Assembly (NCBI GenBank): GCA_018580065.1
Contig: GCA_018580065.1_4845.1
From: a phage
Strand: one strand, 5' to 3'
Length of the DNA stretch: 46,716 nucleotides
This document shows, piece by piece, positions 1 through 46,716 of this stretch. Below the pieces are notes generated by a model. That model was given only the letters and a program-made list of their open reading frames with translations, searched no databases and was not told the DNA's origin. Each line of letters begins with the position of its first letter. Within the stretch, counting starts at the first letter, position 1. Position numbers and translations under genes: made by a program.

Positions 1-120
1 AAAAAAAAACTCCTGTCGGAAAGCGAGATGCGCATCTCTCCGATTTCTGTTAGTGGCGTGCGATTGCTCATGTTTTGCATCCTGAATTTGACTGATGTTG
101 ATTATATCATCTCAGTGGTG

Positions 121-149
121 TTGACACCTGTGAGGCGGTGATGTAGATT
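121..149 (+). promoter_or_regulatory. sigma70-like promoter, TTGACA-17nt-TAGATT
   Basis: TTGACA at 121-126, 17-nt spacer, TAGATT at 144-149; GAGGTGA RBS before ATG 185. Confidence 0.55.
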
Positions 150-184
150 CAATTCATCGAAACGAGATATGAATGAGGTGAGTT

Positions 185-478
185 ATGAAAATTAAAATGT
201 TGATTGCATCTGCTTTACTGGTTTCTTCTTTTCCCGTCAGCGCAACTTCAGAGATGTGCAAAAACATCGGAGAAATTGCCATGAATACCGCCGATGTTCG
301 CGACAGCGGTATCAGTAAGAATCTTGCCGAGGTGGTAGTAAAAGGCTCTGCAAAAAACAACGAATCAGCAGAAATAATCGGCCTTGCTATCGTAGAAATG
401 GTTTATGCGCGCAAGGATATGACTAAAGAGCAATTGCGTGATGTGGCTGTTGCTTTGTGCGAAAAGAATGGCATGTAA
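185..478 (+). CDS. small secreted/periplasmic protein with N-terminal signal peptide
   Basis: ORF track 97 aa; N-terminus MKIKMLIASALLVSSFPVSATS is a typical Sec signal; strong RBS. Confidence 0.6.
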   Translation: MKIKMLIASALLVSSFPVSATSEMCKNIGEIAMNTADVRDSGISKNLAEVVVKGSAKNNESAEIIGLAIVEMVYARKDMTKEQLRDVAVALCEKNGM

Positions 479-510
479 TATAAACAAGTTATTAACAGTT
501 GAGGTTAGCT

Positions 511-705
511 ATGGACGTTGTTATTTTGTTGCTTTTCGCTGGATTGGTTATATTTGCTTATCTTCTCCCGTCATTTGTGGCATTGCAAAGAAAGCACACA
601 AATGCGACCGCAATCTGTGTATTGAATATTCTTGTCGGATGGAGCTTTGTTGGGTGGGTTGCAGCACTTGTTTGGGCGTTAGTTAACAGTGGCGACAAGA
701 AATGA
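511..705 (+). CDS. superinfection-immunity-like small membrane protein (Imm_superinfect-type)
   Basis: Two TM helices with PSFVALQRKHTN...NILVGWSFVGWVAALVWAL pattern; ATG 511 preceded by GAGG (ORF track starts at TTG 499). Confidence 0.6.
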   Translation: MDVVILLLFAGLVIFAYLLPSFVALQRKHTNATAICVLNILVGWSFVGWVAALVWALVNSGDKK

Positions 706-845
706 ACGAGCAAACAAAAGCAGACCTGATTTTCTACACTGATCTGTATGTCGATGCAGGTTACGACTATGAAGAAGCCGAACGCATGGCGAAAGATTTG
801 CTTCGTGTGATTGGTGTGATTTTTGAAGAGGATAAGGTCATATGA
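702..845 (+). CDS. hypothetical small protein (47 aa), translationally coupled
   Basis: ATGA overlap with stop of upstream gene and with start of downstream gene; below ORF-track size cutoff. Confidence 0.35.
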   Translation: MNEQTKADLIFYTDLYVDAGYDYEEAERMAKDLLRVIGVIFEEDKVI

Positions 846-1060
846 AAATATCGCTAATTGATGACAAATGTGTATTAAATGCTGTAGGAAAGATGCTTCA
901 TGGAGAGCCTACATATTACATCAGAAACCTGCTTAGCTATACATATCCTGGGATTGACACGCCGTCAGTTCTTAGGAAGTTAAAATATATGGAAAAGAGA
1001 GGCTTAGTAAGAATGGTAAGAAGCCCAAACTTACTTAATAATATTAGCTGGACTAAGTAA
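842..1060 (+). CDS. hypothetical protein, AT-rich
   Basis: ORF track 72 aa; last gene of the 4-gene cassette; followed by hairpin terminator. Confidence 0.45.
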   Translation: MKISLIDDKCVLNAVGKMLHGEPTYYIRNLLSYTYPGIDTPSVLRKLKYMEKRGLVRMVRSPNLLNNISWTK

Positions 1061-1063
1061 ACA

Positions 1064-1088
1064 AAGCCCCTTTCGGGGCTTTTTCTTT
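1064..1088. terminator. bidirectional intrinsic terminator
   Basis: GCCCC-tttc-GGGGC stem-loop followed by TTTTTCTTT; sits between convergent genes. Confidence 0.7.
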
Positions 1089-1089
1089 A

Positions 1090-1806
1090 TCATGATACGG
1101 TGCACGCCGTGCTGATGATAATTTCAGGGTCGGTAGATGAGTCCGTCACTGTGACTGTATACACGCCAGCAGTTGGGCTTGCCAGTGATGCGCCAGACTC
1201 ACCACCAACAACCACACCATCTTTGCGCCAAACGTAGGTGTATGGTGCGACACCACCTTCAACAGCAACAGTTAACTGGCTGCCAGTGCTGCCAGTTGAT
1301 TGCAGGTCGGTGGTGAACTTCAGTGGCTCAAGGCTTTCGACGGTAACGCTGTCAGAATCGTAAACCTTGAACTCAAGGCTGCCAGTGACGATGTCGTTCG
1401 TGCCACCTTCGTAGCTGATGCTGGTAATGTTGCAGTACGCGGTAACGATAGTTGCACCAGTCACCTCGCGTACCCACAAAGAAGGCTGGCGACGCGCTTT
1501 CAGTTCAGTGGCGTAAATCTCAACCAGACGATGGAAGCCAAACTCATCGCTCGGGTCATTCTTGCGGATTTCCACTTCTGCGCTGATGGTCATATCAGAG
1601 CTGGTAACGAGAGTGGAAACAAAACCTCCAGCGGTATCCGCTTCAGACGTGGTAGTCTGCGGAGAGTAGTCAACACCTTTGCTGGTGGTTGAACCTAAAT
1701 ACTTCCAGTCTTCTGCATCAGGAACTGCGTCACCGCACCCTTCAGCAAGGAACAGTCGGGTCATGCGACCGACCAGAGCACCCTTATCATTTGCACAAAT
1801 AGCCAT
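1090..1806 (-). CDS. major tail (tube) protein with C-terminal Ig-like domain
   Basis: 238 aa; position downstream of connector genes; Thr/Val-rich C-terminal beta-sandwich-like segment (TYVWRKDG...VYTVTVTD). Confidence 0.55.
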   Translation of the reverse strand: MAICANDKGALVGRMTRLFLAEGCGDAVPDAEDWKYLGSTTSKGVDYSPQTTTSEADTAGGFVSTLVTSSDMTISAEVEIRKNDPSDEFGFHRLVEIYATELKARRQPSLWVREVTGATIVTAYCNITSISYEGGTNDIVTGSLEFKVYDSDSVTVESLEPLKFTTDLQSTGSTGSQLTVAVEGGVAPYTYVWRKDGVVVGGESGASLASPTAGVYTVTVTDSSTDPEIIISTACTVS

Positions 1807-1857
1807 TTCGATCTCCGAATTGTGTTAGCTGCTAACGTGGTGATTATATCACAGGTG

Positions 1858-1886
1858 TTGACAGTGATTATTTTGTGGTGTAGATT
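1858..1886 (+). promoter_or_regulatory. sigma70-like promoter, TTGACA-17nt-TAGATT
   Basis: TTGACA 1858-1863, TAGATT 1881-1886; no protein-coding ORF follows, leads into non-coding region and tRNA. Confidence 0.5.
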
Positions 1887-1894
1887 TATATGCA

Positions 1895-2326
1895 ACAGAG
1901 ATTTGTTCCCTGATTTCATTTAATTACAGCAAGTCCTTTAATTAAATTAGCGGTCGAGAGACGCCGGACGCGTAACCGGCACACAACAGGTGAGAGCATT
2001 TGGTGAATCGGCGATACTGCCCCACAAGCCCGTAGCCATCGATAGAGGTAGACAAGTGCTCTTTCCGTTGTGGTGAATGCGCAGGCTGATGCGCTAACTC
2101 GCGTGGGTTCCGGTGGTTTCACCGGGTAGACAGGGATTAACTGACCTGCCTCCGTAGATGAAAAGGCTAGCGGCCACAAGACACGGGGAATCATCAAGCC
2201 GGAAATCAGCACCGGCCACCACAACACTTAATATCCAGCATTATCGCAATCATATATAGGGGTATGTATGGGTTACGGGGCTGGATATTAAGAAAGCACG
2301 CTGGCAATGCTTAAACCAGCACTTAT
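1895..2326 (+). ncRNA. candidate structured non-coding RNA / long tRNA leader
   Basis: ~430 nt without plausible ORF between promoter and tRNA; several local hairpins (CCGGTG-gttt-CACCGG, GCGC-n8-GCGC, 10-bp inverted repeat AATATCCAGC...GCTGGATATT). Confidence 0.3.
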
Positions 2327-2403
2327 GGACGCGTAGCTTAATTGGTTAAAGCAACCGACTCATAATCGGCTGATTGAAGGTTCAAATCCGTCCGTGTCCA
2401 CCA
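2327..2403 (+). tRNA. tRNA with anticodon CAT (Met elongator-type or Ile2)
   Basis: Hand-folded cloverleaf: 7-bp acceptor stem GGACGCG/CGTGTCC, U8, D-loop with GG, anticodon loop CTCATAA, T-loop TTCAAAT, 3' ACCA; two stem mismatches. Confidence 0.7.
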
Positions 2404-2407
2404 AATT

Positions 2408-2438
2408 AAAAGCCGCTTCGTGCGGCTTTATTTATTTC
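2408..2438. terminator. intrinsic terminator after tRNA
   Basis: AAGCCGC-ttcgt-GCGGCTT hairpin followed by TATTTATTT. Confidence 0.65.
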
Positions 2439-3204: not shown

Positions 3205-3542
3205 GTCACCAGTGCGAAATCAGGTGGCTCAGCGCGATTGAACGTATTGCCATAATTAATCACATTCAGAATCTGATTTGCGCCAGCAACCAGCGGGTCA
3301 GCTTCTGTCACCGTGCCAATCATGATGTAGTCGCCAGTCTTAGCACCAACATACTCAGTCCAGAACGTATTCTTCTGCACAATCTCATTGCCTTTCGCAT
3401 CGGTAGATACATCATCGTTAAAACCATAATCGCACATGATGCTCACTGGCTCATCAAAAGTCGGCTTGCCGTACTTGTCGGTTCCGGTCTTGTGCCAGAT
3501 AGTGCATGGCTGCGTGTAAGAAAACCGAGAGATTGAGGTCAT
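3201..3542 (-). CDS. head-tail joining / head closure protein (by position)
   Basis: 113 aa ORF in connector operon. Confidence 0.35.
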   Translation of the reverse strand: MTSISRFSYTQPCTIWHKTGTDKYGKPTFDEPVSIMCDYGFNDDVSTDAKGNEIVQKNTFWTEYVGAKTGDYIMIGTVTEADPLVAGANQILNVINYGNTFNRAEPPDFALVT

Positions 3543-4150
3543 AAAACATTCCTATATGAACGATTTTTCTTGATGTGCTGGATAGCACCTTTAGACACGC
3601 CAAACTCATCAGCAAGTGATTGTGAGTGCTCTCCATTTGCTAGTCTGGTTCTCACCTCCCTAACCTGATCATCAGTTAATTTAGCGTGTTTTGGAGTCCT
3701 GCCGAACATTGGGTTTTTCTCGCCAATTCTTGATTGCGATATTTTCTTTCTTGTTTCTTCTGTTTTTGGACCCATAGAGCAAGGTGGTGTTTTCCCATAC
3801 CAGCAGTTATTCTTTCCCATCCTGCTTTTGCTCATTTTAGCTTTAGCCACATCTGTTGCCTGAACCCCCAAGCACGTACCAGCTATTTTTGCCACATTAT
3901 ATTGAGGACTTAGCTTGTCTATGTAGAATTGCTCTCTACTAAGCAGGATTGATTCATCGTTAACAATTTCAAGAATTGAAAATCTGAATAATGACTCGCC
4001 ATATTTTGCTCCATCATTATACAACCTGTGTGGGCTGTGCATGCCATTCCTCATTTTGTATCGATGCACAGCAATTCTATTGGTGTAGCTTATTGTTGAA
4101 CCAACATAAATCTCTTTAGTTATTGTATTTTCAATCTGATATACAGCCAT
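3539..4150 (-). CDS. GIY-YIG homing endonuclease (Seg/I-TevI-like)
   Basis: N-terminal VYQIEN...KEIYVGST (GIY...YIG) motif, NUMOD3-like repeats (KMSKSRMGKNN, ISQSRIGEKNPMFG), C-terminal HTH-like; ORF track begins 4168, MAVYQ start at 4150. Confidence 0.75.
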   Translation of the reverse strand: MAVYQIENTITKEIYVGSTISYTNRIAVHRYKMRNGMHSPHRLYNDGAKYGESLFRFSILEIVNDESILLSREQFYIDKLSPQYNVAKIAGTCLGVQATDVAKAKMSKSRMGKNNCWYGKTPPCSMGPKTEETRKKISQSRIGEKNPMFGRTPKHAKLTDDQVREVRTRLANGEHSQSLADEFGVSKGAIQHIKKNRSYRNVL

Positions 4151-4158
4151 CACTCTCT

Positions 4159-4551
4159 TCATTTGCACTTACTCCCACGAACAACCGCAAACCACGGTTT
4201 ACCGCTTCCGTCAGGGTCTTCCACTAAATCGCCAGTGCATCCGGCTGTATCCAGTAGCTTCATCTGATTGTACAGTGCCACCCACGGCTTGCTACCATAC
4301 GCGAATGATTGTGATGCGCCAGAAGGTGCGCTCTGCCTGGTGACGTAGCGCCCTGCGGTATTTGCGCTAATCAGGATGGAAGCCCACAGCATGATCGCAT
4401 TTTGTCGGCATTCATCATTTGGATAGTTCAGTTCAAGGCATTCGCTGATTGATGACACAAGGCACAGAATGCCAGACGCATCTGTCGTGGTGATGGTCAT
4501 CCCGCGCGACGCCATCTGACTGACCAGTTCTTCAGGTGTTGGTGCTGCCAT
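4159..4551 (-). CDS. hypothetical protein, possible head-tail connector component
   Basis: ORF track 142 aa from TTG; ATG at 4551 with GGGAG RBS. Confidence 0.35.
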   Translation of the reverse strand: MAAPTPEELVSQMASRGMTITTTDASGILCLVSSISECLELNYPNDECRQNAIMLWASILISANTAGRYVTRQSAPSGASQSFAYGSKPWVALYNQMKLLDTAGCTGDLVEDPDGSGKPWFAVVRGSKCK

Positions 4552-22126: not shown

Positions 22127-22311
22127 TCCACCTTTTCCAGTTTATCAATGATAACGTCGTAGCCCTTTATTTCGTACTTTGCAACCAATTCGCAACCCAA
22201 AAACCAATCGAACGCTTCATTGGCGTTAGATGTCGTGGCTGTCGCGCAAACCTTGGTAACAACTTCACCACCATCAAGCACTTCAGCATGAATAAAATAA
22301 ACGCTCATCAC
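22123..22311 (-). CDS. hypothetical protein
   Basis: ORF track 62 aa. Confidence 0.4.
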   Translation of the reverse strand: MMSVYFIHAEVLDGGEVVTKVCATATTSNANEAFDWFLGCELVAKYEIKGYDVIIDKLEKVE

Positions 22312-22487
22312 TCAATCTCCTCACCATCAACCCAGCGTTGCAGGACTTCGATTAGCTGCATGGCTTGGTGTTTGTCAATAATAATAGCGTTATGACCCTG
22401 AGTAATCATTGGATTAAACTTGAAATCAACAGCTATTGTGCACATTGGCGTTTTTGTTTCGTCTTCAATAACAATCATCACATCACC

Positions 22488-22895
22488 TCAACAAAGCTCA
22501 CCATCAGTTATCATCAATAACTTCTGCCATTTAGCTACCGGCTTGCACAACTCAGACTTCAACCTGCTTAACGAGCCTGTAATATCAGACCATTCGGCAA
22601 ACGGAACGAATCGCACAAACCGGTAGTCAGCTCCAGCCCAGTGCCAGCCAAGCGTGTAGTCGATGTATGTGCCGTCTGACTGCATGTTTATGTAATGTGC
22701 AGTCACAGACTTATCATCAATCACCACAACCTCAACCACTGCGCACGAACTTCCGTCACGCGCCCTGTTCACTGCATTCAGATGACAGGCGTGATTGTAC
22801 AGGCCAGTACCATCAATGAATGATATATCAATCTTTTTGGTGTATTTCTTATCCGCAGCGTCGCGGATTATTTTCTTTAATTTATCCCTGAACAT
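22488..22895 (-). CDS. hypothetical protein
   Basis: ORF track from TTG 22946; ATG 22895 with GGTGG RBS. Confidence 0.45.
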   Translation of the reverse strand: MFRDKLKKIIRDAADKKYTKKIDISFIDGTGLYNHACHLNAVNRARDGSSCAVVEVVVIDDKSVTAHYINMQSDGTYIDYTLGWHWAGADYRFVRFVPFAEWSDITGSLSRLKSELCKPVAKWQKLLMITDGELC

Positions 22896-27765: not shown

Positions 27766-27912
27766 TCATTTACCTAACCCATACGCCGAGATTAAAGCCT
27801 GCATTGCTGCGTTCCAGAATGCTTCTGCAGGAATACTGTTATTTGTGCGCTCAACTGCAATGCGCGCCATAGCCTGTGCATCTTTAAATTCTTCGCGGTC
27901 TTTAATTTTCAT
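27766..27912 (-). CDS. hypothetical small protein (48 aa), first gene after early promoter
   Basis: GAGGGTGAAGG RBS before ATG 27912; followed by overlapping tiny ORFs (31 aa membrane peptide 27674..27769, 26 aa 27591..27671). Confidence 0.35.
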   Translation of the reverse strand: MKIKDREEFKDAQAMARIAVERTNNSIPAEAFWNAAMQALISAYGLGK

Positions 27913-27942
27913 ACCTTCACCCTCGTTTGTTTCGATGAGTTC

Positions 27943-27971
27943 AATCTACATCAGTTGTGATTCTACGTCAA
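27943..27971 (-). promoter_or_regulatory. sigma70-like early promoter, TTGACG-17nt-TAGATT
   Basis: Minus strand TTGACGTAGAAT...GATGTAGATT; both elements are copies of the recurring motif. Confidence 0.6.
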
Positions 27972-27984
27972 CATGCAGAGAAAG

Positions 27985-28135
27985 AAAAAGCACTACCAAA
28001 TGTTAGTTAATGCTAGCCAACATATATAGTTACATATATTACTAATAGTAACCTTTGTTTATTACCTCTATAAAGTATATTAAGATCTTCTTTATATTTA
28101 TTGTAGATATTAATACCTTACGCTACAGAAACACG
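27985..28135. other. AT-rich block with dyad symmetries (candidate DNA unwinding element)
   Basis: Visibly AT-rich, non-coding, next to iteron array; contains TTGTAGATAT motif copy. Confidence 0.4.
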
Positions 28136-28165
28136 AAAACCAGCAGTTAAGCTGGTTATTTTTTA
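28136..28165 (+). terminator. hairpin with T-run inside the non-coding origin-like region
   Basis: AAAACCAGC-agttaa-GCTGGTT followed by ATTTTTTAG. Confidence 0.4.
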
Positions 28166-28185
28166 GTGGTTTTTAGTGTTTTTTG

Positions 28186-28414
28186 GCTTCCCGCGCTTCC
28201 CTGAATTCCCTGGAAGCATTTTTTTCTTTGTTTTCAGTAGCTTCTGAGTGTTTTTTGTATCGCTTCCCGCCTCCCAAGAAAATAATTTTTGAATTTTAAA
28301 ACTCTCAATTTTTTTCGAAAATCTTCCCGGGAAGCGGGAAGTTGGGAAGCGACGACTTAAATAATTGATTTTCCTGTATTTTCGCTTCCCAAGCTGTTTT
28401 GGTTTTTTGGAAGC
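28186..28414. repeat. iteron-like array of GCTTCCC / GGGAAGC heptamers (candidate replication origin)
   Basis: At least 8 copies in both orientations, including CTTCCCGGGAAGCGGGAAGTTGGGAAGC; located just upstream of the replication module. Confidence 0.55.
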
Positions 28415-28581
28415 AAAGCTATTGAAAATAAAAGAAAAATTACCCCTCTGGTAAGCGTTATACTCCTGTTGGAGTGTGCTGTCAACCAGCCGCACGGAAC
28501 AAAGATCATCCCCGTGTAAATGTGTTTGACTAGCTTCCTTTTTCCCTTTATTCTTTTTTTTATCAAACAAGAAGTGGAGAA

Positions 28582-29243: not shown

Positions 29244-31573
29244 TGATTGGTTATGAAGATTACCGCAAATGTGGCTTCCCTATTATTGGAATCCATGCGA
29301 TGGATATCGACCGAAATTGCACATGCGGTGATCCAGAGTGCAATGCTGCCGGTAAGCATCCGGTTATGAGCAACTGGCAGCTTGGAGTTATATGGGCTGA
29401 TGACCAGATTGAAAATATGGCTGAATATGGTCAGTTGCAGTCATTCGGTGTCCTTGTGAATGGTTATCTGGTCGTTGATATTGACCCACGCAACGGAGGT
29501 AATGATGGATATGAATCGCTTTGTGATGCCTTAGACGTAGAGCTTGCTGACGAAGCTGGTTTTACGGTCAAGACTGGTGGTGGTGGTCGCCACATCTATT
29601 ACAAACTTCCTGAAGGAATAAAGCTGCGCTCTCATGACAGAAGATTTAATGGTATTGACTTTAAATCATCTGGTTTTGTTGTTGGATGTGGTTCTTTTCA
29701 TAAAACTGGAAACTTTTATGAGGCCGAGCATGGATCCCCTTCAGAGATAACTGAATGTCCATCTGAACTTATTGAGCTTTTGTTGCGTCCTGAGAGAACG
29801 GAAGACGAGGTTTTCACGCTTGATAGTAAAAATTACAGCATTGCCGAAATGGAGGATATGCTCAAATACATCAAAGATGGTGATGAGTATGACCCATGGC
29901 TTCATGTAGGTATGGCTATCCACGAAGCTACAGAAGGCAATGGTTTTGAGCTTTGGGATAGATGGTCATCGCAGTTCAGCAAATACAGAGCTGAAGAGAT
30001 GGACGCAAAATGGCATTCCTTTGGAAAGGACGGCGTTAGCGAAAAGATAACAGAAGCAACGCTGGTTTATCTCGCGCAAGAGGGGGGGTGGGTAAGGCAA
30101 GTAACTTTTGAGGCTACGCCAGAGGAAATTGAGAAACTTGAGTCTTTCGAACGAGAGATGGCAATGGGTGTTGGTGAATGCCCTGTAGAGTACAAAAGTG
30201 TTGATGTCCGTTATCCGCCTGGATTTGTTGGTCGCCTTGCGGCGTGGATTAATAAGAACTGTGCAGAGAAGCGAGAGAATATTGCAGCACTTGCCGCATT
30301 GCATGCCGCATCCATGATTTGCGGTGCGTCATCTGATATTTACCTTACAAACAGGAAGGCTTTACCAAACCTTTTTGCTGTTGGTATCGCTGGTTCAGGT
30401 TCAGGTAAGGGTGATGTCCTTGCTGCGCTACAAAAGATAATTGATTGCTCAGGATTGAGTAAGACAGTTGCCGGTAAGATACGCTCAGAGCGTGCGATAT
30501 ATGAAGGTCTTTGCGCTAACCAGATGTTTAATATCATCATGGATGAGATTGGGATAAAACTTGGGAGTGTTGTTGGTCAGAAAGTAAGCGAGTACAACAT
30601 GGCAACCGCTGGTGCGATCATGGAGGCTTACACGTCAGAAGTTCTTTATTGTGACCAGCGGGTTACTGAGGATTTCATTAAGTCTTTTGAAAAAAGAAAG
30701 GCTATGCTGTTGATGGCTATTGAGGAAAATGAAATACAGGCAGACCCCGTTGACATTAAGTGTCAGTTTGATGATGTGATAAACAGAATTGACGGAGCTA
30801 TAAGGAATCCATTTTTTTCAATCTTTGGTGTATCTACTGATGATCAGTTTAAGCGCCTTATTACAGAAGAAAACATTAAGTCAGGCCTTATGGGTCGCGC
30901 AATGATTATGCAGGAGTTACAGGAGATTGCTGATGAAAACGAAAACGTAAACTACTGTGATCTACCTATGGATATGCAACTGACCATAAAAACAATAATA
31001 AATGGCGGAACGGCTGGGCACAAAAACTGGACAGACTCAATAATCAGTCAAAAAGAAAGACGGATTATAAAAGCCACGCCTGAAGTTTCTCAGCTCGCCA
31101 AGGAGTTCTTCTCATGGATTAAAACCGTTGCAAGAAAGCATGTAGAAAATGGTACTGGTTATCACCCATTGATAAACAGATGCGCCGTGAAGGTGGCAAA
31201 GATTGCTGGAATTCTCGCGTGCGATACTGGCGTCATAACCATGGAGCACTTGAGATATGCGGTAGCATTAACAATTAAATCAACAAGCGATCTGATGATG
31301 CGTGCCGACAGTATCGCCGGAGCGAAGTCTAAAGCTATGGAAGAGAGAATTGAAGGCATTTTCTCCATGGTTAAAGAATATGTGAAGCGAGGAATGACCA
31401 AAACAGCAATGGTTAGAGGGGTGGCAAAAGAAGGTGGTTATAAACGTGCTGATGTCGAGAGGTGCGTAGAGAAGTTGTTATCAGATGGTGTTATTTGCAT
31501 TGATGAAAATGCAAAAAGAACATCTCACAACGTAATAATTTACAAATTAACAAATGATGAGGTTGAGATATGA
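29240..31573 (+). CDS. bifunctional DNA primase-polymerase with helicase-like C-terminal domain
   Basis: Prim-pol motifs VVDIDPRNGG and GGGRHIYY, PriCT-like DPWLHVGMAIHEA, Walker A GIAGSGSGKG. Confidence 0.8.
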   Translation: MMIGYEDYRKCGFPIIGIHAMDIDRNCTCGDPECNAAGKHPVMSNWQLGVIWADDQIENMAEYGQLQSFGVLVNGYLVVDIDPRNGGNDGYESLCDALDVELADEAGFTVKTGGGGRHIYYKLPEGIKLRSHDRRFNGIDFKSSGFVVGCGSFHKTGNFYEAEHGSPSEITECPSELIELLLRPERTEDEVFTLDSKNYSIAEMEDMLKYIKDGDEYDPWLHVGMAIHEATEGNGFELWDRWSSQFSKYRAEEMDAKWHSFGKDGVSEKITEATLVYLAQEGGWVRQVTFEATPEEIEKLESFEREMAMGVGECPVEYKSVDVRYPPGFVGRLAAWINKNCAEKRENIAALAALHAASMICGASSDIYLTNRKALPNLFAVGIAGSGSGKGDVLAALQKIIDCSGLSKTVAGKIRSERAIYEGLCANQMFNIIMDEIGIKLGSVVGQKVSEYNMATAGAIMEAYTSEVLYCDQRVTEDFIKSFEKRKAMLLMAIEENEIQADPVDIKCQFDDVINRIDGAIRNPFFSIFGVSTDDQFKRLITEENIKSGLMGRAMIMQELQEIADENENVNYCDLPMDMQLTIKTIINGGTAGHKNWTDSIISQKERRIIKATPEVSQLAKEFFSWIKTVARKHVENGTGYHPLINRCAVKVAKIAGILACDTGVITMEHLRYAVALTIKSTSDLMMRADSIAGAKSKAMEERIEGIFSMVKEYVKRGMTKTAMVRGVAKEGGYKRADVERCVEKLLSDGVICIDENAKRTSHNVIIYKLTNDEVEI

Positions 31574-31992
31574 TTAATTACAAGTATCTGGTGATGAGAG
31601 GTTTGTATGACTATTTTGAGTCAGAAAATCCTGAGCGCGCACATGATAACGCAATATCCATGATGACAGGAAAACACCTGATGGAAGTTTACTACTGGAA
31701 AATGCCAGTATTCCGCTGCAATATGGGTATCTGCATTGATGATGACGTACTGTTTTGTCGAATACAATATGAAAACAATGTAGGCATAGTGACAGCATCG
31801 TACAGGGATGTCGCAAGAAAATCCGGGAAATGGCATCCAAGCGAAGTATTTGCTGGTGACGCACTATTTAATTTCTGCAAGGCGTTTGGTGTTTTGTATG
31901 AGGATGTAAGCAAAGAGTATAGCGGAAGGCGTGAGAAAGATAGCTTGAGTTCCAAAGGCGTGACTAACTACAAGGATAAAAACCATGTGTAA
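31570..31992 (+). CDS. hypothetical protein
   Basis: ORF track 140 aa. Confidence 0.45.
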   Translation: MINYKYLVMRGLYDYFESENPERAHDNAISMMTGKHLMEVYYWKMPVFRCNMGICIDDDVLFCRIQYENNVGIVTASYRDVARKSGKWHPSEVFAGDALFNFCKAFGVLYEDVSKEYSGRREKDSLSSKGVTNYKDKNHV

Positions 31993-43737: not shown

Positions 43738-43738
<1 letters not shown>

Positions 43739-46080
43739 TATTCGGTTGCTCTCCGGTTTGCGTTATAGTTTCTGCCAATACTTTGCCCGATTGGTCCATT
43801 GTTCTCAATGTCGCTAACAATGGTCTCAATTGTCACGCTGCCGTCACCATTATCTCTGGCGCTGCTGCTAACCTGCGCTGAGCTGTTATTGATGATGCTA
43901 TTATAAACCACGACGCCACTACCACCTCCGGTAATGTCTTTGTTGCTGATAACGCGACCACTATCGCCCGGTATCATGTACTGGTGACCGTTTGATGCCC
44001 GGAATATCTCAGGCAGGTTATTCTCTCCGACACGGTACATTGAACCTTCCTGTGCGGGGCCACCGTTTTTAAGCGCGCCAGCAATGGATAGTGTTTTTGC
44101 AAGACCAACTGTTGCTGACATTCCTGCCATAGCTGGTGCTGAGTTTGTACCTGCGGTGGCGAGAGAAGTCATTGCTGCTGCTGGAGCCATCGCGGCTGAT
44201 ATCGCTGCCGCCTGAGCCATTGTTGCTGCTGATGCTGCTGCCATTCCAGCCTGACCCATGATTACTGACTGCGCCCACTGGATACCCATTTGAACGAAAG
44301 CATTAATAACGCTGGACAGGATGTTTGAACCAACTGAACGAAGCGCATCTGATACAGACATTGAGCCAGTGAGGATGCCAGTAAGCGCATTTCCAGCGGT
44401 CTGCCCAAAAGCATCAAACGCCGCAGCGGCCGCCTGTGTTGCTGCATTCTGTTGCGACCACTCAGACCACATAGCCTCAAGTCGTTTTTGTCTGTATTGT
44501 TCTTCAATGGTGGCTCTTGTTTGCTGTATCTCTGCCATTTTTTGCGGATACGCCTTGGCATACGCATCCAAATCAGCCATATCTTTTTGATATGACGTTT
44601 CAACAGCAAACATTGGTGAGGTTTGTGATTTTAATGCGCTGTAACCTTTTACTGCATCTATCCTTTTCTTCTCAGCCGCTGCCTGCTCCTTCAGTGCATT
44701 CTTCTGGTCCCAAATCTTAGCGGCGTACTCACCAGCCAGTTTTATTTGCTCCTGAGTGGCGGCCTTGCCAAGCGATTGCTGCGCGTTGAGGATTGCCTGT
44801 TCGCGGGATAACTCGCTGGTAGATGTGGCATTGAGCATGGTTTGCTGGCGTAATTTCTCCAGCTTTTCAGCTACTGATTCAGCTTGTCTTTCTTCGGCGC
44901 TTTTGCCCTTTCCTTTTCCTTTTTTGTCTTTGGTTGGTGCTTGTGCAATCTTCAGGTGTTTTGTTGCTTCAGCCTGTTTCTTTGTCTGCTCGTAACCTTC
45001 TGCTGATGCCTTAACGAATCGCTCAACCTGATCGTTATATTGTTTTTGCTTTTCAATATCGTCATCACCAAAAAGCGCATCAACTCCCATTTGCGCCCAC
45101 GCACCCGGATTTAACTTCGATATAACCGTGGCGAGAGATAAAACCTTATCGCTTGTGCTGGTCGATTTATCACCAAGAAAATCAATGTATTTTGCTAGCT
45201 GGTCGATAATCTCTACCGCTGTTTTTGATGCGCCAGTCGCATCGTTAACAGCAACCACAAGTTTGGAGAATGAAACCTCGAGAGAGCCTACGGCCTGATC
45301 CATTGTGCGAGGAAGTTTTTCAAACTCAGCATTGACGACGCTTGTTCTGTCCTGAATGGCATTTAGCGCATCTTCTGCTGTCAGTTTGCCATCGAGCATT
45401 CTGGCTCGAAGCTCACCCATTGAAATGCCAAGCCCCGCCGCAATTTGGCGTGCAAGTTCAGGCATCTGCTCAAGGATGGAGTTGAACTCTTCCGCACGTA
45501 TTGTGCCAGATGCGATTGACTGACCGAACTGACGTAATGCGTTCGCCATTTCTTCGGTTGATGACCCACCGATTCGACCTATTTTTTGCAGGGTGTCTGT
45601 AAGGTTAAGAACTTGCGCATTTGTTGCGCCAGCCTCTTTCAGTGATGATGTTAATGTCTCCCACAGCTTCGTGGTGTCACTGAGGCTTGCGCCAGTTGTT
45701 GAGGCGATATTTGCCAGTGTGCTGAATGTTTCGTTCGCGGTTTTCGCATCAGTTGACAAGCGAGCAATCCTTGCCTGAAGTTGTGTCATGTTATCGGCAA
45801 CCTCAAGGAATCGCTTTCCCCATTCGATAATCAGTGACACGGATATTGCGCCAGCCAGCATCGACATACTGGTCTTGAGTCCTGAAGCTGCGCCGCCAGC
45901 ATTCTTCATTCCGCTGCCAGCATTTCTGGCGTTTTTATCCAGCTTACCAAGCGCGCTTGTGGTTTTGTTGGTTGATGATTCAAGGTCATCTAAAGTCTTA
46001 TTGGCTGTTGTCGCGCCAGCTTTCAGGCCTTTAACATCCATCCCGACTTCATAGACAATTCCGCCGACTTCTTCAGCCAT
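43738..46080 (-). CDS. tail tape measure protein
   Basis: 780 aa, Ala/Gln-rich helical repeats, Gly/Ala/Met-rich C-terminal region. Confidence 0.85.
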
Positions 46081-46697
46081 TATGTATTCCTCGCTTTTTT
46101 CGCTTTGCGTTCAGCCAGTGCCTTCATGCGCTCACGGTCTGCTTTAGCCTGATCGTACTCTGCCGCGCGCTCTTCTTTCGTTAACCCTTTCGGCTCTGGA
46201 TATTTATTCTTAATCATCATCTGAAACTCTGTCATGGACAGGTTTTCTGCCTCATCGCGCGTCATGTCGAAATGCGTGCGTGCTGAGATAATGTATTGCG
46301 ACGCATGAAACTCATTTGTGGTTTTCTTGCCCTGCTCTTCCAGACGCTCAGGTACTTTGAGTGGTGACTTGCCAATGATGCCATGCTGCATCAGGTTGCG
46401 CGCAATAATAATAATGTCGCTCACTGGCATGATGCCGGGAACGTATCGCACGCCGCGCGGCGTTGGCTTCCAGCCACCAATCAGCACAGAAATATCATCT
46501 TCACAGCATGACTGCATTACGATATAGGCCGCACTCAGTACATGGCGACCATACACTGGTTTGCTGATTGTCTTCATAACCTGCATCTGCGCGCCAAATG
46601 GCAGGTATTCGACGTGCTGCAGCGGCGCAACATAATCAATGCCATTGAGCTTAGCGTATACCTCAACGATTTCCTTTGGTGTGCCAATTTCATTCAT
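46080..46697 (-). CDS. tail assembly chaperone (putative; may be truncated by window edge)
   Basis: 205 aa directly upstream of tape measure; reading frame stays open upstream to the window end. Confidence 0.4.
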   Translation of the reverse strand: MNEIGTPKEIVEVYAKLNGIDYVAPLQHVEYLPFGAQMQVMKTISKPVYGRHVLSAAYIVMQSCCEDDISVLIGGWKPTPRGVRYVPGIMPVSDIIIIARNLMQHGIIGKSPLKVPERLEEQGKKTTNEFHASQYIISARTHFDMTRDEAENLSMTEFQMMIKNKYPEPKGLTKEERAAEYDQAKADRERMKALAERKAKKARNT

Positions 46698-46716
46698 TGC
46701 GCGAAATGATGGCTTG

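Follow-up and report, generated by a model that had tools for sequence, protein, structure and literature searches.

The stretch of DNA analyzed here, a 46,716-bp phage contig (GCA_018580065.1_4845.1, referred to as the window), represents the entire genome, circularly permuted, of a small Skate-like siphovirus. Near its start lies a cassette of four genes, g1 to g4, with a promoter and a terminator, read antisense to the tail genes on either side (Table 1). The closest GenBank relative is Salmonella phage Skate, which has ~91% nucleotide identity across the cassette region. The window opens within the gene for a DUF6246 protein, at a run of nine A residues, and joining its end to its start restores the reading frame exactly, giving an intact protein of 235 amino acids (aa) that is collinear with Skate gp82. 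Because the joined ends rebuild the DUF6246 gene, the cassette can be placed between this gene and that of the major tail (tube) protein, for which the Skate record notes mass spectrometry evidence. The tape measure gene follows DUF6246 at a distance of ~0.7 kb from g2, and its product has an Ala/Gly/Met-rich segment at about residues 560-700.

Table 1. Features of the cassette and its flanks, in window positions (ORF, open reading frame).
Feature	Position	Strand	Basis or remark
Cassette (promoter, four genes, terminator)	121..1090	+	Antisense to tail genes
Candidate extended -10 promoter TGATATAAT, facing DUF6246/tape measure genes	100..109	-	Read from sequence
Cassette sigma-70-type promoter, TTGACA-17-TAGATT	121..149	+	Consensus scan, 10/12 positions match
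g1, 97 aa, predicted exported	185..478	+	ORF with ribosome-binding site
g2, 64 aa, two hydrophobic segments, Imm homologue	511..705	+	ATG at 511; GAGG 6 nucleotides (nt) upstream
g3, 47 aa, acidic (isoelectric point 4.1), translationally coupled to g2	702..845	+	ORF
g4, 72 aa, predicted stand-alone winged-helix DNA-binding domain	842..1060	+	ORF, AlphaFold2, Foldseek
Bidirectional intrinsic terminator, hairpin AAAGCCCC-TTTC-GGGGCTTT	1063..1082	both	Scan; G+C-rich stem
Major tail (tube) protein gene, right flank	1090..1806	-	ORF; annotated major tail protein in relatives
DUF6246 gene, left flank	46080..46716 plus 1..71	-	Pfam DUF6246, E 8e-69
Tape measure gene, after DUF6246	43738..46080	-	Pfam TMP_3, E 2e-55

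The four ORFs appear to form a separate transcription unit, based on invariant promoter hexamers, a conserved terminator, and a GC content below that of the flanks. The promoter consensus scan was not significant alone (3 sites found versus 4.2 expected in shuffles). Across 47 homologous regions (40 distinct sequences), the -35 and -10 hexamers are invariant while the spacer varies, a pattern that points to function. The terminator hairpin is followed by a T-rich tail on the + strand and sits 8 nt past the tail tube stop codon, serving both the cassette and, on the - strand, the tail tube gene. All relatives conserve the sequence from position 1059 onward, including the terminator, and the Skate record annotates a terminator on both strands. 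GC content is ~42% in g1 to g3 and 35.2% in g4, compared to 49-52% in the flanking genes (tail tube, 52%) and 45.9% in the genome.

Back-to-back with the cassette promoter is the - strand TGATATAAT element, which is likewise invariant in the 47 homologous regions and is a putative promoter based on its resemblance to an extended -10 site. The record of phage ASO78B annotates divergent promoters at the site equivalent to 100..149. This two-promoter module is duplicated at 1842..1886, again with TGATATAAT on the - strand and TTGACA-17-TAGATT on the + strand, so that one copy precedes the DUF6246/tape measure genes and the other precedes the tail tube gene. Since the module is present twice, extended -10 promoters of the host type may restart tail gene transcription.

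That the cassette of a virulent phage has a host-type promoter suggests early expression, like that of T4 imm. Publication titles report the phages of the Skate group as lytic. No integrase or repressor is annotated in Skate; the window itself was not searched for lysogeny genes. Skatevirus isolates are counted among the small O-antigen-dependent siphoviruses (PMC11990801, the BASEL paper). We take the group to be virulent and the unit to be an accessory operon, probably early as judged by promoter type, rather than a prophage moron. We also considered the cassette as a lysis module and rejected this reading, as Skate has a separate endolysin/holin/spanin block.

All four ORFs are real genes, because substitutions relative to homologues are biased to third codon positions. 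Counts at codon positions 1/2/3 are 127/81/481 for g1, 157/48/469 for g2, 43/15/431 for g3, and 13/11/35 for g4. Consecutive genes overlap by ATGA at g2/g3 (702..705) and at g3/g4 (842..845).

On profile and alignment evidence, g2 is a genuine member of the T4 Imm superinfection-immunity family. It scores 64.4 bits against PF14373 (Imm_superinfect; cut-off 27.9, E 8.5e-18), compared to 58.2 bits for T4 Imm itself, and it matches phrog_1039. By BLASTP, g2 and T4 Imm are 31% identical, with 52% positives over 62 aa (E 3e-11). Residues R27 and W44 of g2 align with R33 and W50 of T4 Imm and are invariant in 28 distinct alleles, as are the Y, P, A-L, and G-W positions common to both proteins. T4 Imm is reported to copurify with the T4 tape measure protein, and the R33A and W50A substitutions to weaken exclusion (preprint 10.64898/2026.03.06.709160). 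The two hydrophobic segments of g2 span residues 1-26 and 32-59 by Kyte-Doolittle analysis, with a grand average of hydropathy of 1.26. PADLOC gave a marginal 2TM-TIR match to the hydrophobic part (E 0.0045), which we discounted, and NCBIfam gave nothing meaningful. By analogy with T4, g2 would confer superinfection exclusion, and it is the only gene of the cassette that can be assigned to this function with any confidence.

The product of g1 is most likely a Sec-exported periplasmic protein. It starts with a classical signal peptide, MKIKMLIASALLVSSFPVSA/T, ending VSA/T at the cleavage site, and its homologues in phages Vi II-E1 and LPSTLL are annotated as exported. In an alignment of 18 homologues, cysteines C25 and C92 of the mature part are invariant, and this part is predicted to form four helices (AlphaFold2; predicted local distance difference test [pLDDT], 78). 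The protein matches phrog_2315, a family of unknown function. A Foldseek search of the PDB with the g1 model found nothing, and no relation to Spackle, Llp, Cor, or any PADLOC model was detectable. We rejected two candidate identities. A Spackle-like lysozyme inhibitor is not supported, as neither sequence nor fold resembles T4 Spackle (Sp), and the resemblance to AhpD/CMD (carboxymuconolactone decarboxylase) enzymes is of fold only, with no CxxC motif and no Pfam match. Protein searches with g1 and with g3 returned only close relatives, in similar phage-sized contigs.

By its sequence and distribution, g3 is predicted to be a soluble acidic protein acting in the cytoplasm and a core gene of the whole clade. 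It matches phrog_17424 and no other known family, and it is present in 205 phage records. Third codon positions account for 88% of its substitutions, which is comparable to the tail tube gene.

The last gene, g4, is modeled with high confidence (pLDDT 89.6) as a winged-helix domain with H-H-H-hairpin topology. Its top 50 Foldseek matches in the PDB are all winged-helix proteins (probability, ~1; template modeling score, 0.56-0.72), nearly all of them Fur/PerR/Zur, MarR, PadR, or BlaI regulators. Profile matches fall below family thresholds (MarR_2, 14.9 bits versus a cut-off of 27; Pfam MarR, E 0.03). At 72 aa, g4 comprises the DNA-binding domain only; a dimerization or sensor domain is not present. 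We therefore predict a cytoplasmic DNA-binding protein, and as a stand-alone winged-helix domain it would not be an envelope factor. Its GC content is in the lowest 0.9% of 219-nt genome windows. Only 29 phage records contain it, at ≤75% identity; most of these are Jerseyvirus and Klebsiella phages, in which its position is different. Composition and distribution suggest that g4 is the only cassette gene recently acquired and that it replaced the usual DUF551 gene. Two further islands of ≤35% GC in 219-nt windows, as extreme as g4, lie at 27861..28440 and 31371..31700.

All features that the first-pass annotation of this stretch had described are present at the positions it gave. The sigma-70-type promoter and terminator it called are the conserved elements at 121..149 and 1063..1082, and the opposite strand it noted is that of four + strand genes between - strand tube and DUF6246/tape measure genes. 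Its signal-peptide protein corresponds to g1, its two-transmembrane protein with a superinfection-immunity pattern to g2, and its tiny ORFs with ATGA overlaps and AT-rich last gene were recovered as well.

To place the cassette among its relatives, we retrieved 34 IMG/VR loci with the tail tube protein. A cassette lies at the tail tube/DUF6246 junction in 34/34 of these loci and in every GenBank relative examined; relatives lacking the insert, which the first-pass annotation proposed to look for, were not found, and only the cargo varies. g3 is present in all 34 loci, and DUF551 takes the last position in 33 of them. imm (g2) is found in 26/34 and g1 in 21/34 (two of divergent type), and g4 is found in none (0/34). 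Breakpoints relative to relatives fall at 187/204, 478, 500, 702, 846, and 1059, all of which are gene borders. The gene order is g1-imm-g3-DUF551 in Skate and Sf11, g1-imm-g3-NinX-DUF551 in KFSST1, g1-g3-NinX-DUF551 in LPSTLL, and imm-g3-DUF2591-DUF551 in AB4P2 and ASO78B. Phages SB28 and ST44 have a different exported protein, followed by g3, and Klebsiella phage MK54 has g3-NinX-g4-like.

Skate, Sf11, KFS-SE2, Vi II-E1, and other Skatevirus, Cedarrivervirus, and Roufvirus phages share the junction, promoter, g1, imm, g3, and terminator with the window at ~90% nucleotide identity. They differ in the last gene, which is DUF551 with or without NinX/DUF2591 rather than the winged-helix gene found here. 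No GenBank phage record spans at least 80% of the cassette. Two contigs, one from a metagenome and one from a Salmonella assembly, have the exact four-gene set, and three further contigs have the order g1-g3-g4. In many GenBank relatives, imm already bears the annotation of a superinfection immunity protein, and g1 that of an exported one. Thus, the junction is an old, permanently occupied slot, with a constant frame (promoter, g3, and terminator) and exchangeable cargo.

No locus lacks both g1 and imm (0/34 versus ~3 expected; hypergeometric P of ~0.011, uncorrected for shared ancestry). This hints, short of proof, at g1 being a second factor at the envelope level. The tape measure proteins of these loci (L020-L053) are of a short type (778-792 aa) or of long types (816-1097 aa), and the N-terminal parts of the types are unrelated. 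imm accompanies the complete short-type protein in 17/17 loci and the long types in 7/15; the loci without imm occur only among the latter (8/15), and g1 is mostly missing from short-type loci. This pattern may reflect linkage or function, and physical linkage alone could produce it. Covariation between Imm and tape measure protein was also looked for at the level of alleles and was not seen; only presence or absence is tied to tape measure type.

We consider it probable that the cassette is an accessory operon read by host RNA polymerase in a fixed antisense slot, with exchangeable cargo that includes a homologue of T4 Imm. In this proposal, host RNA polymerase would transcribe the operon from its position between the tail tube gene and the DUF6246/tape measure genes. 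The promoter, g3, and terminator would be the frame of the slot, with g1, g2, and g4 as its cargo here. g2 would prevent DNA translocation by later-arriving phages, most likely because it binds the tape measure protein of the incoming phage, a mechanism recently reported for T4 Imm. The products of g3 and g4 would act in the cytoplasm in a role other than exclusion. The presence of Imm-family genes beside the tape measure gene in Skate-like phages, pYD38-A, and Bas82 fits a tape measure link, and so does the restriction of imm-less loci to those with long-type tape measure proteins, a pattern that linkage alone could also give.

Several observations weigh against this explanation. The function of g2 is transferred from T4 at 31% identity and from a myovirus to a siphovirus, and PF14373 also holds many bacterial proteins of unknown role. 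A literature search on PF14373 in Skate-like phages turned up nothing relevant, and no experiment on any Imm homologue from these phages was found. Imm alleles that are 88-95% identical accompany tape measure proteins that are 53-98% identical (best-matching segment), and such pairing of near-identical alleles with divergent tape measure proteins argues against tight allele-specific recognition. imm is absent from 8/34 relatives and is thus dispensable. In addition, the early timing is deduced from promoter type, and g1, g3, and g4 have no assigned functions.

Some of these points would suit a small membrane protein with another role, for example in membrane potential, lysis timing, or a host transporter, in which case the family name of g2 would be misleading. 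The PF14373 model spans only 42 mostly hydrophobic residues and also matches mycobacteriophages and T4-like Klebsiella phages at low similarity; Imm alleles do not follow tape measure divergence, and the 8 relatives without imm have no obvious replacement membrane protein. However, the T4 Imm match covers both helices and the loop, with invariant Y, P, R, W, and GW positions, lysis is served by a separate holin/endolysin/spanin module in Skate, and two siphovirus lineages that are unrelated have Imm-family genes adjoining the tape measure gene. On balance, we find a role other than exclusion unlikely. A better case, if still a minority one, can be made that the slot exists mainly for g3 and its transcriptional architecture, with g1, imm, and the last gene as dispensable passengers at a recombination-prone site. 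The back-to-back promoters would restart tail gene transcription and drive g3, taken to be a small essential gene, and the terminator would limit read-through from the tube gene into the chaperone/tape measure genes. The promoter, g3, and terminator are indeed the only constant parts, g3 is as conserved as structural genes, a second copy of the divergent promoter module precedes the tube gene, and the terminator is bidirectional and close to the tube stop codon. Yet passengers can still function, which makes this account compatible with an accessory operon carrying Imm; moreover, g1 and imm are under purifying selection, one or the other is always present, and the essentiality of g3 is deduced from its conservation.

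The first-pass annotation had proposed a four-gene moron as a candidate superinfection-exclusion cassette. In this view, all four genes would make up one dedicated, horizontally acquired unit in which g1 and g2 act at the envelope and the small ORFs are cofactors. The single promoter and terminator, the translational coupling, the predicted envelope location of both g1 and g2, and the lack of any related locus without both g1 and imm agree with this idea. Against it, g4 is predicted to be a winged-helix DNA-binding domain, and the last position in 33/34 relatives holds DUF551, sometimes with NinX/DUF2591, all cytoplasmic genes of the nin-region type. g3 is present regardless of g1 or imm, g1 has no similarity to T4 Spackle and no PADLOC match, and a slot filled in every relative is not a recent addition. 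We therefore regard a four-gene exclusion cassette as improbable. Exclusion is a reasonable assignment for g2, as a T4 Imm homologue, and g1, g3, and g4 are not known exclusion factors. Likewise, horizontal acquisition fits g4, which is AT-rich and replaces DUF551, but not the unit as a whole. The term moron does not suit a universally occupied slot in a virulent group. Conserved synteny, which the first-pass annotation had named as evidence against its proposal, holds for the slot, promoter, g3, and terminator, while g1, imm, and the last gene vary.

A narrower idea, which we offer tentatively and think rather unlikely, is that g1 and Imm are alternative or complementary entry blockers. Their physical linkage to the tape measure gene, at a distance of ~0.7 kb, would then ensure coinheritance of blocker and target. 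The pointers are those described above: no locus lacks both, imm is in all 17 short-type loci, and g1 is mostly missing there. Entry blockers are also found beside the tape measure gene in three siphovirus lineages, represented by Skate-like phages, Bas82, and HK97. g1 may then be a second envelope-level exclusion factor. If this were true, g1 would be a new periplasmic exclusion protein, and tape-measure-adjacent exclusion genes would be a general design rule of siphoviruses.

If g2 excludes as T4 Imm does, the Imm-tape measure mechanism would reach from T-even myoviruses to small O-antigen-dependent siphoviruses. Self- and cross-exclusion would then matter for cocktail design, because small siphoviruses are under development as Salmonella biocontrol agents. 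Relatives in which g1 or imm is nearly the sole difference offer a natural experiment on the contribution of each gene and on tape measure dependence. For annotation, the whole unit should not be called an exclusion cassette or a moron; g4 is better labeled as a putative DNA-binding gene and g3 as a core gene.

Past the tail tube gene, the duplicate cassette-type promoter (1858..1886, +) faces ~440 nt of GC-rich sequence, followed by a tRNA-Met gene (2327..2403) and a terminator (region 1858..2429). Neither a credible ORF nor a match to Pfam or PHROG was found in this ~440-nt stretch. It folds more stably than shuffles (z = -3.7) and contains three collinear conserved blocks common to lambdoid prophages, Klebsiella phages, and N4-like and T4-like phages. 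In lambdoid prophages, these blocks lie downstream of a cI-like repressor gene. Portions of the ~440 nt have matches in 237 GenBank phage records. The structured element of the stretch lies at 1978..2228, with a core at 2054..2228 in which a 9-bp closing helix (GUUGUGGUG/CACCACAAC) encloses two conserved hairpins and an insert that varies from 12 to 150 nt. Its topology resembles that of a tRNA, and one variant, from phage CECAV_048, includes a canonical T-arm.

Of 51 related loci searched with a covariance model, 35 have the element in this slot. Its helices are supported by pairing in 99% of cells and by 6 pairs changed on both sides, a result reached by 0/500 shuffles, with an alignment fitted to the model and thus favoring this outcome. 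An exact 25-mer of the element occurs in at least 120 IMG/VR contigs. The core block is present in 628/5,426 E. coli genomes; in two loci inspected it falls in unannotated gaps, one of which lies downstream of a cI-like gene in a prophage. Rfam held no matching family, and Pas, a small RNA described in a preprint, looked unrelated. The element possibly represents an undescribed family of phage noncoding RNAs. The covariance model also matches Skate (L001, 4558..4702; record region 22191..22705), opposite three tiny hypothetical ORFs, CPT_Skate_053-055, which may be spurious. Separately, an AT-rich gene for a 209-aa GIY-YIG/NUMOD3 homing endonuclease lies among the head-tail joining genes (3539..4168, -). 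It looks like a mobile insertion, because the corresponding site in Skate holds no more than a 150-bp ORF.

Among known systems, g2 is most readily compared to T4 Imm. Both come from virulent phages and share the two-helix hydrophobic core and the R33/W50 equivalents, and a promoter of the host type, as used by early genes, probably drives g2. In contrast, g2 is shorter (64 versus 83 aa), without 6 N-terminal and 13 C-terminal residues of T4 Imm, and lies antisense within tail genes, whereas T4 imm is in a replication gene region. The siphoviral tape measure protein belongs to Pfam TMP_3, and T4 gp29 is differently named, a relation judged by name only. The periplasmic partner of Imm in T4 exclusion is Sp. 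Like g1, it has 97 aa, a signal peptide at its N terminus, and a helical mature part with two cysteines, but the two proteins resemble each other in neither sequence nor fold.

In the definition of Juhala, Hendrix, and coworkers (review, PMC3594210), morons are marked by their own promoter and terminator, distinct base composition, absence from similar genomes, and prophage expression. The cassette has a predicted promoter and terminator, judged by consensus sites and hexamer invariance, and its base composition differs from the flanks. Presence in similar genomes varies by gene (g1, 21/34; imm, 26/34; g4, 0/34) in a slot that is always filled. Prophage expression is not indicated, given the Skate annotation.

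In position and likely logic, the cassette matches gene 15 of HK97. HK97 gp15 is a small inner membrane exclusion protein of the YebO family that blocks DNA entry in a manner dependent on the tail of the incoming phage (PMC3594210). Its gene, too, has its own transcription signals within the tail operon, beside the tape measure gene. The two loci differ in that gene 15 lies between the chaperone and tape measure genes and the cassette between the tube and chaperone genes, and in that HK97 is temperate and expresses gp15 from the prophage, whereas Skate has no annotated integrase or repressor. A Pfam scan (E of 0.1 or better) matched no cassette protein to the YebO family; no direct comparison with gp15 was made. 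The tape measure gene has an Imm-family neighbor in Roufvirus pYD38-A as well. An even closer positional match to HK97 gene 15 is found in Escherichia phage Bas82, an unrelated 9NA-like phage, in which a 59-aa Imm-family gene and an endonuclease gene lie antisense between the chaperone and tape measure genes (L054, 3489..3668).

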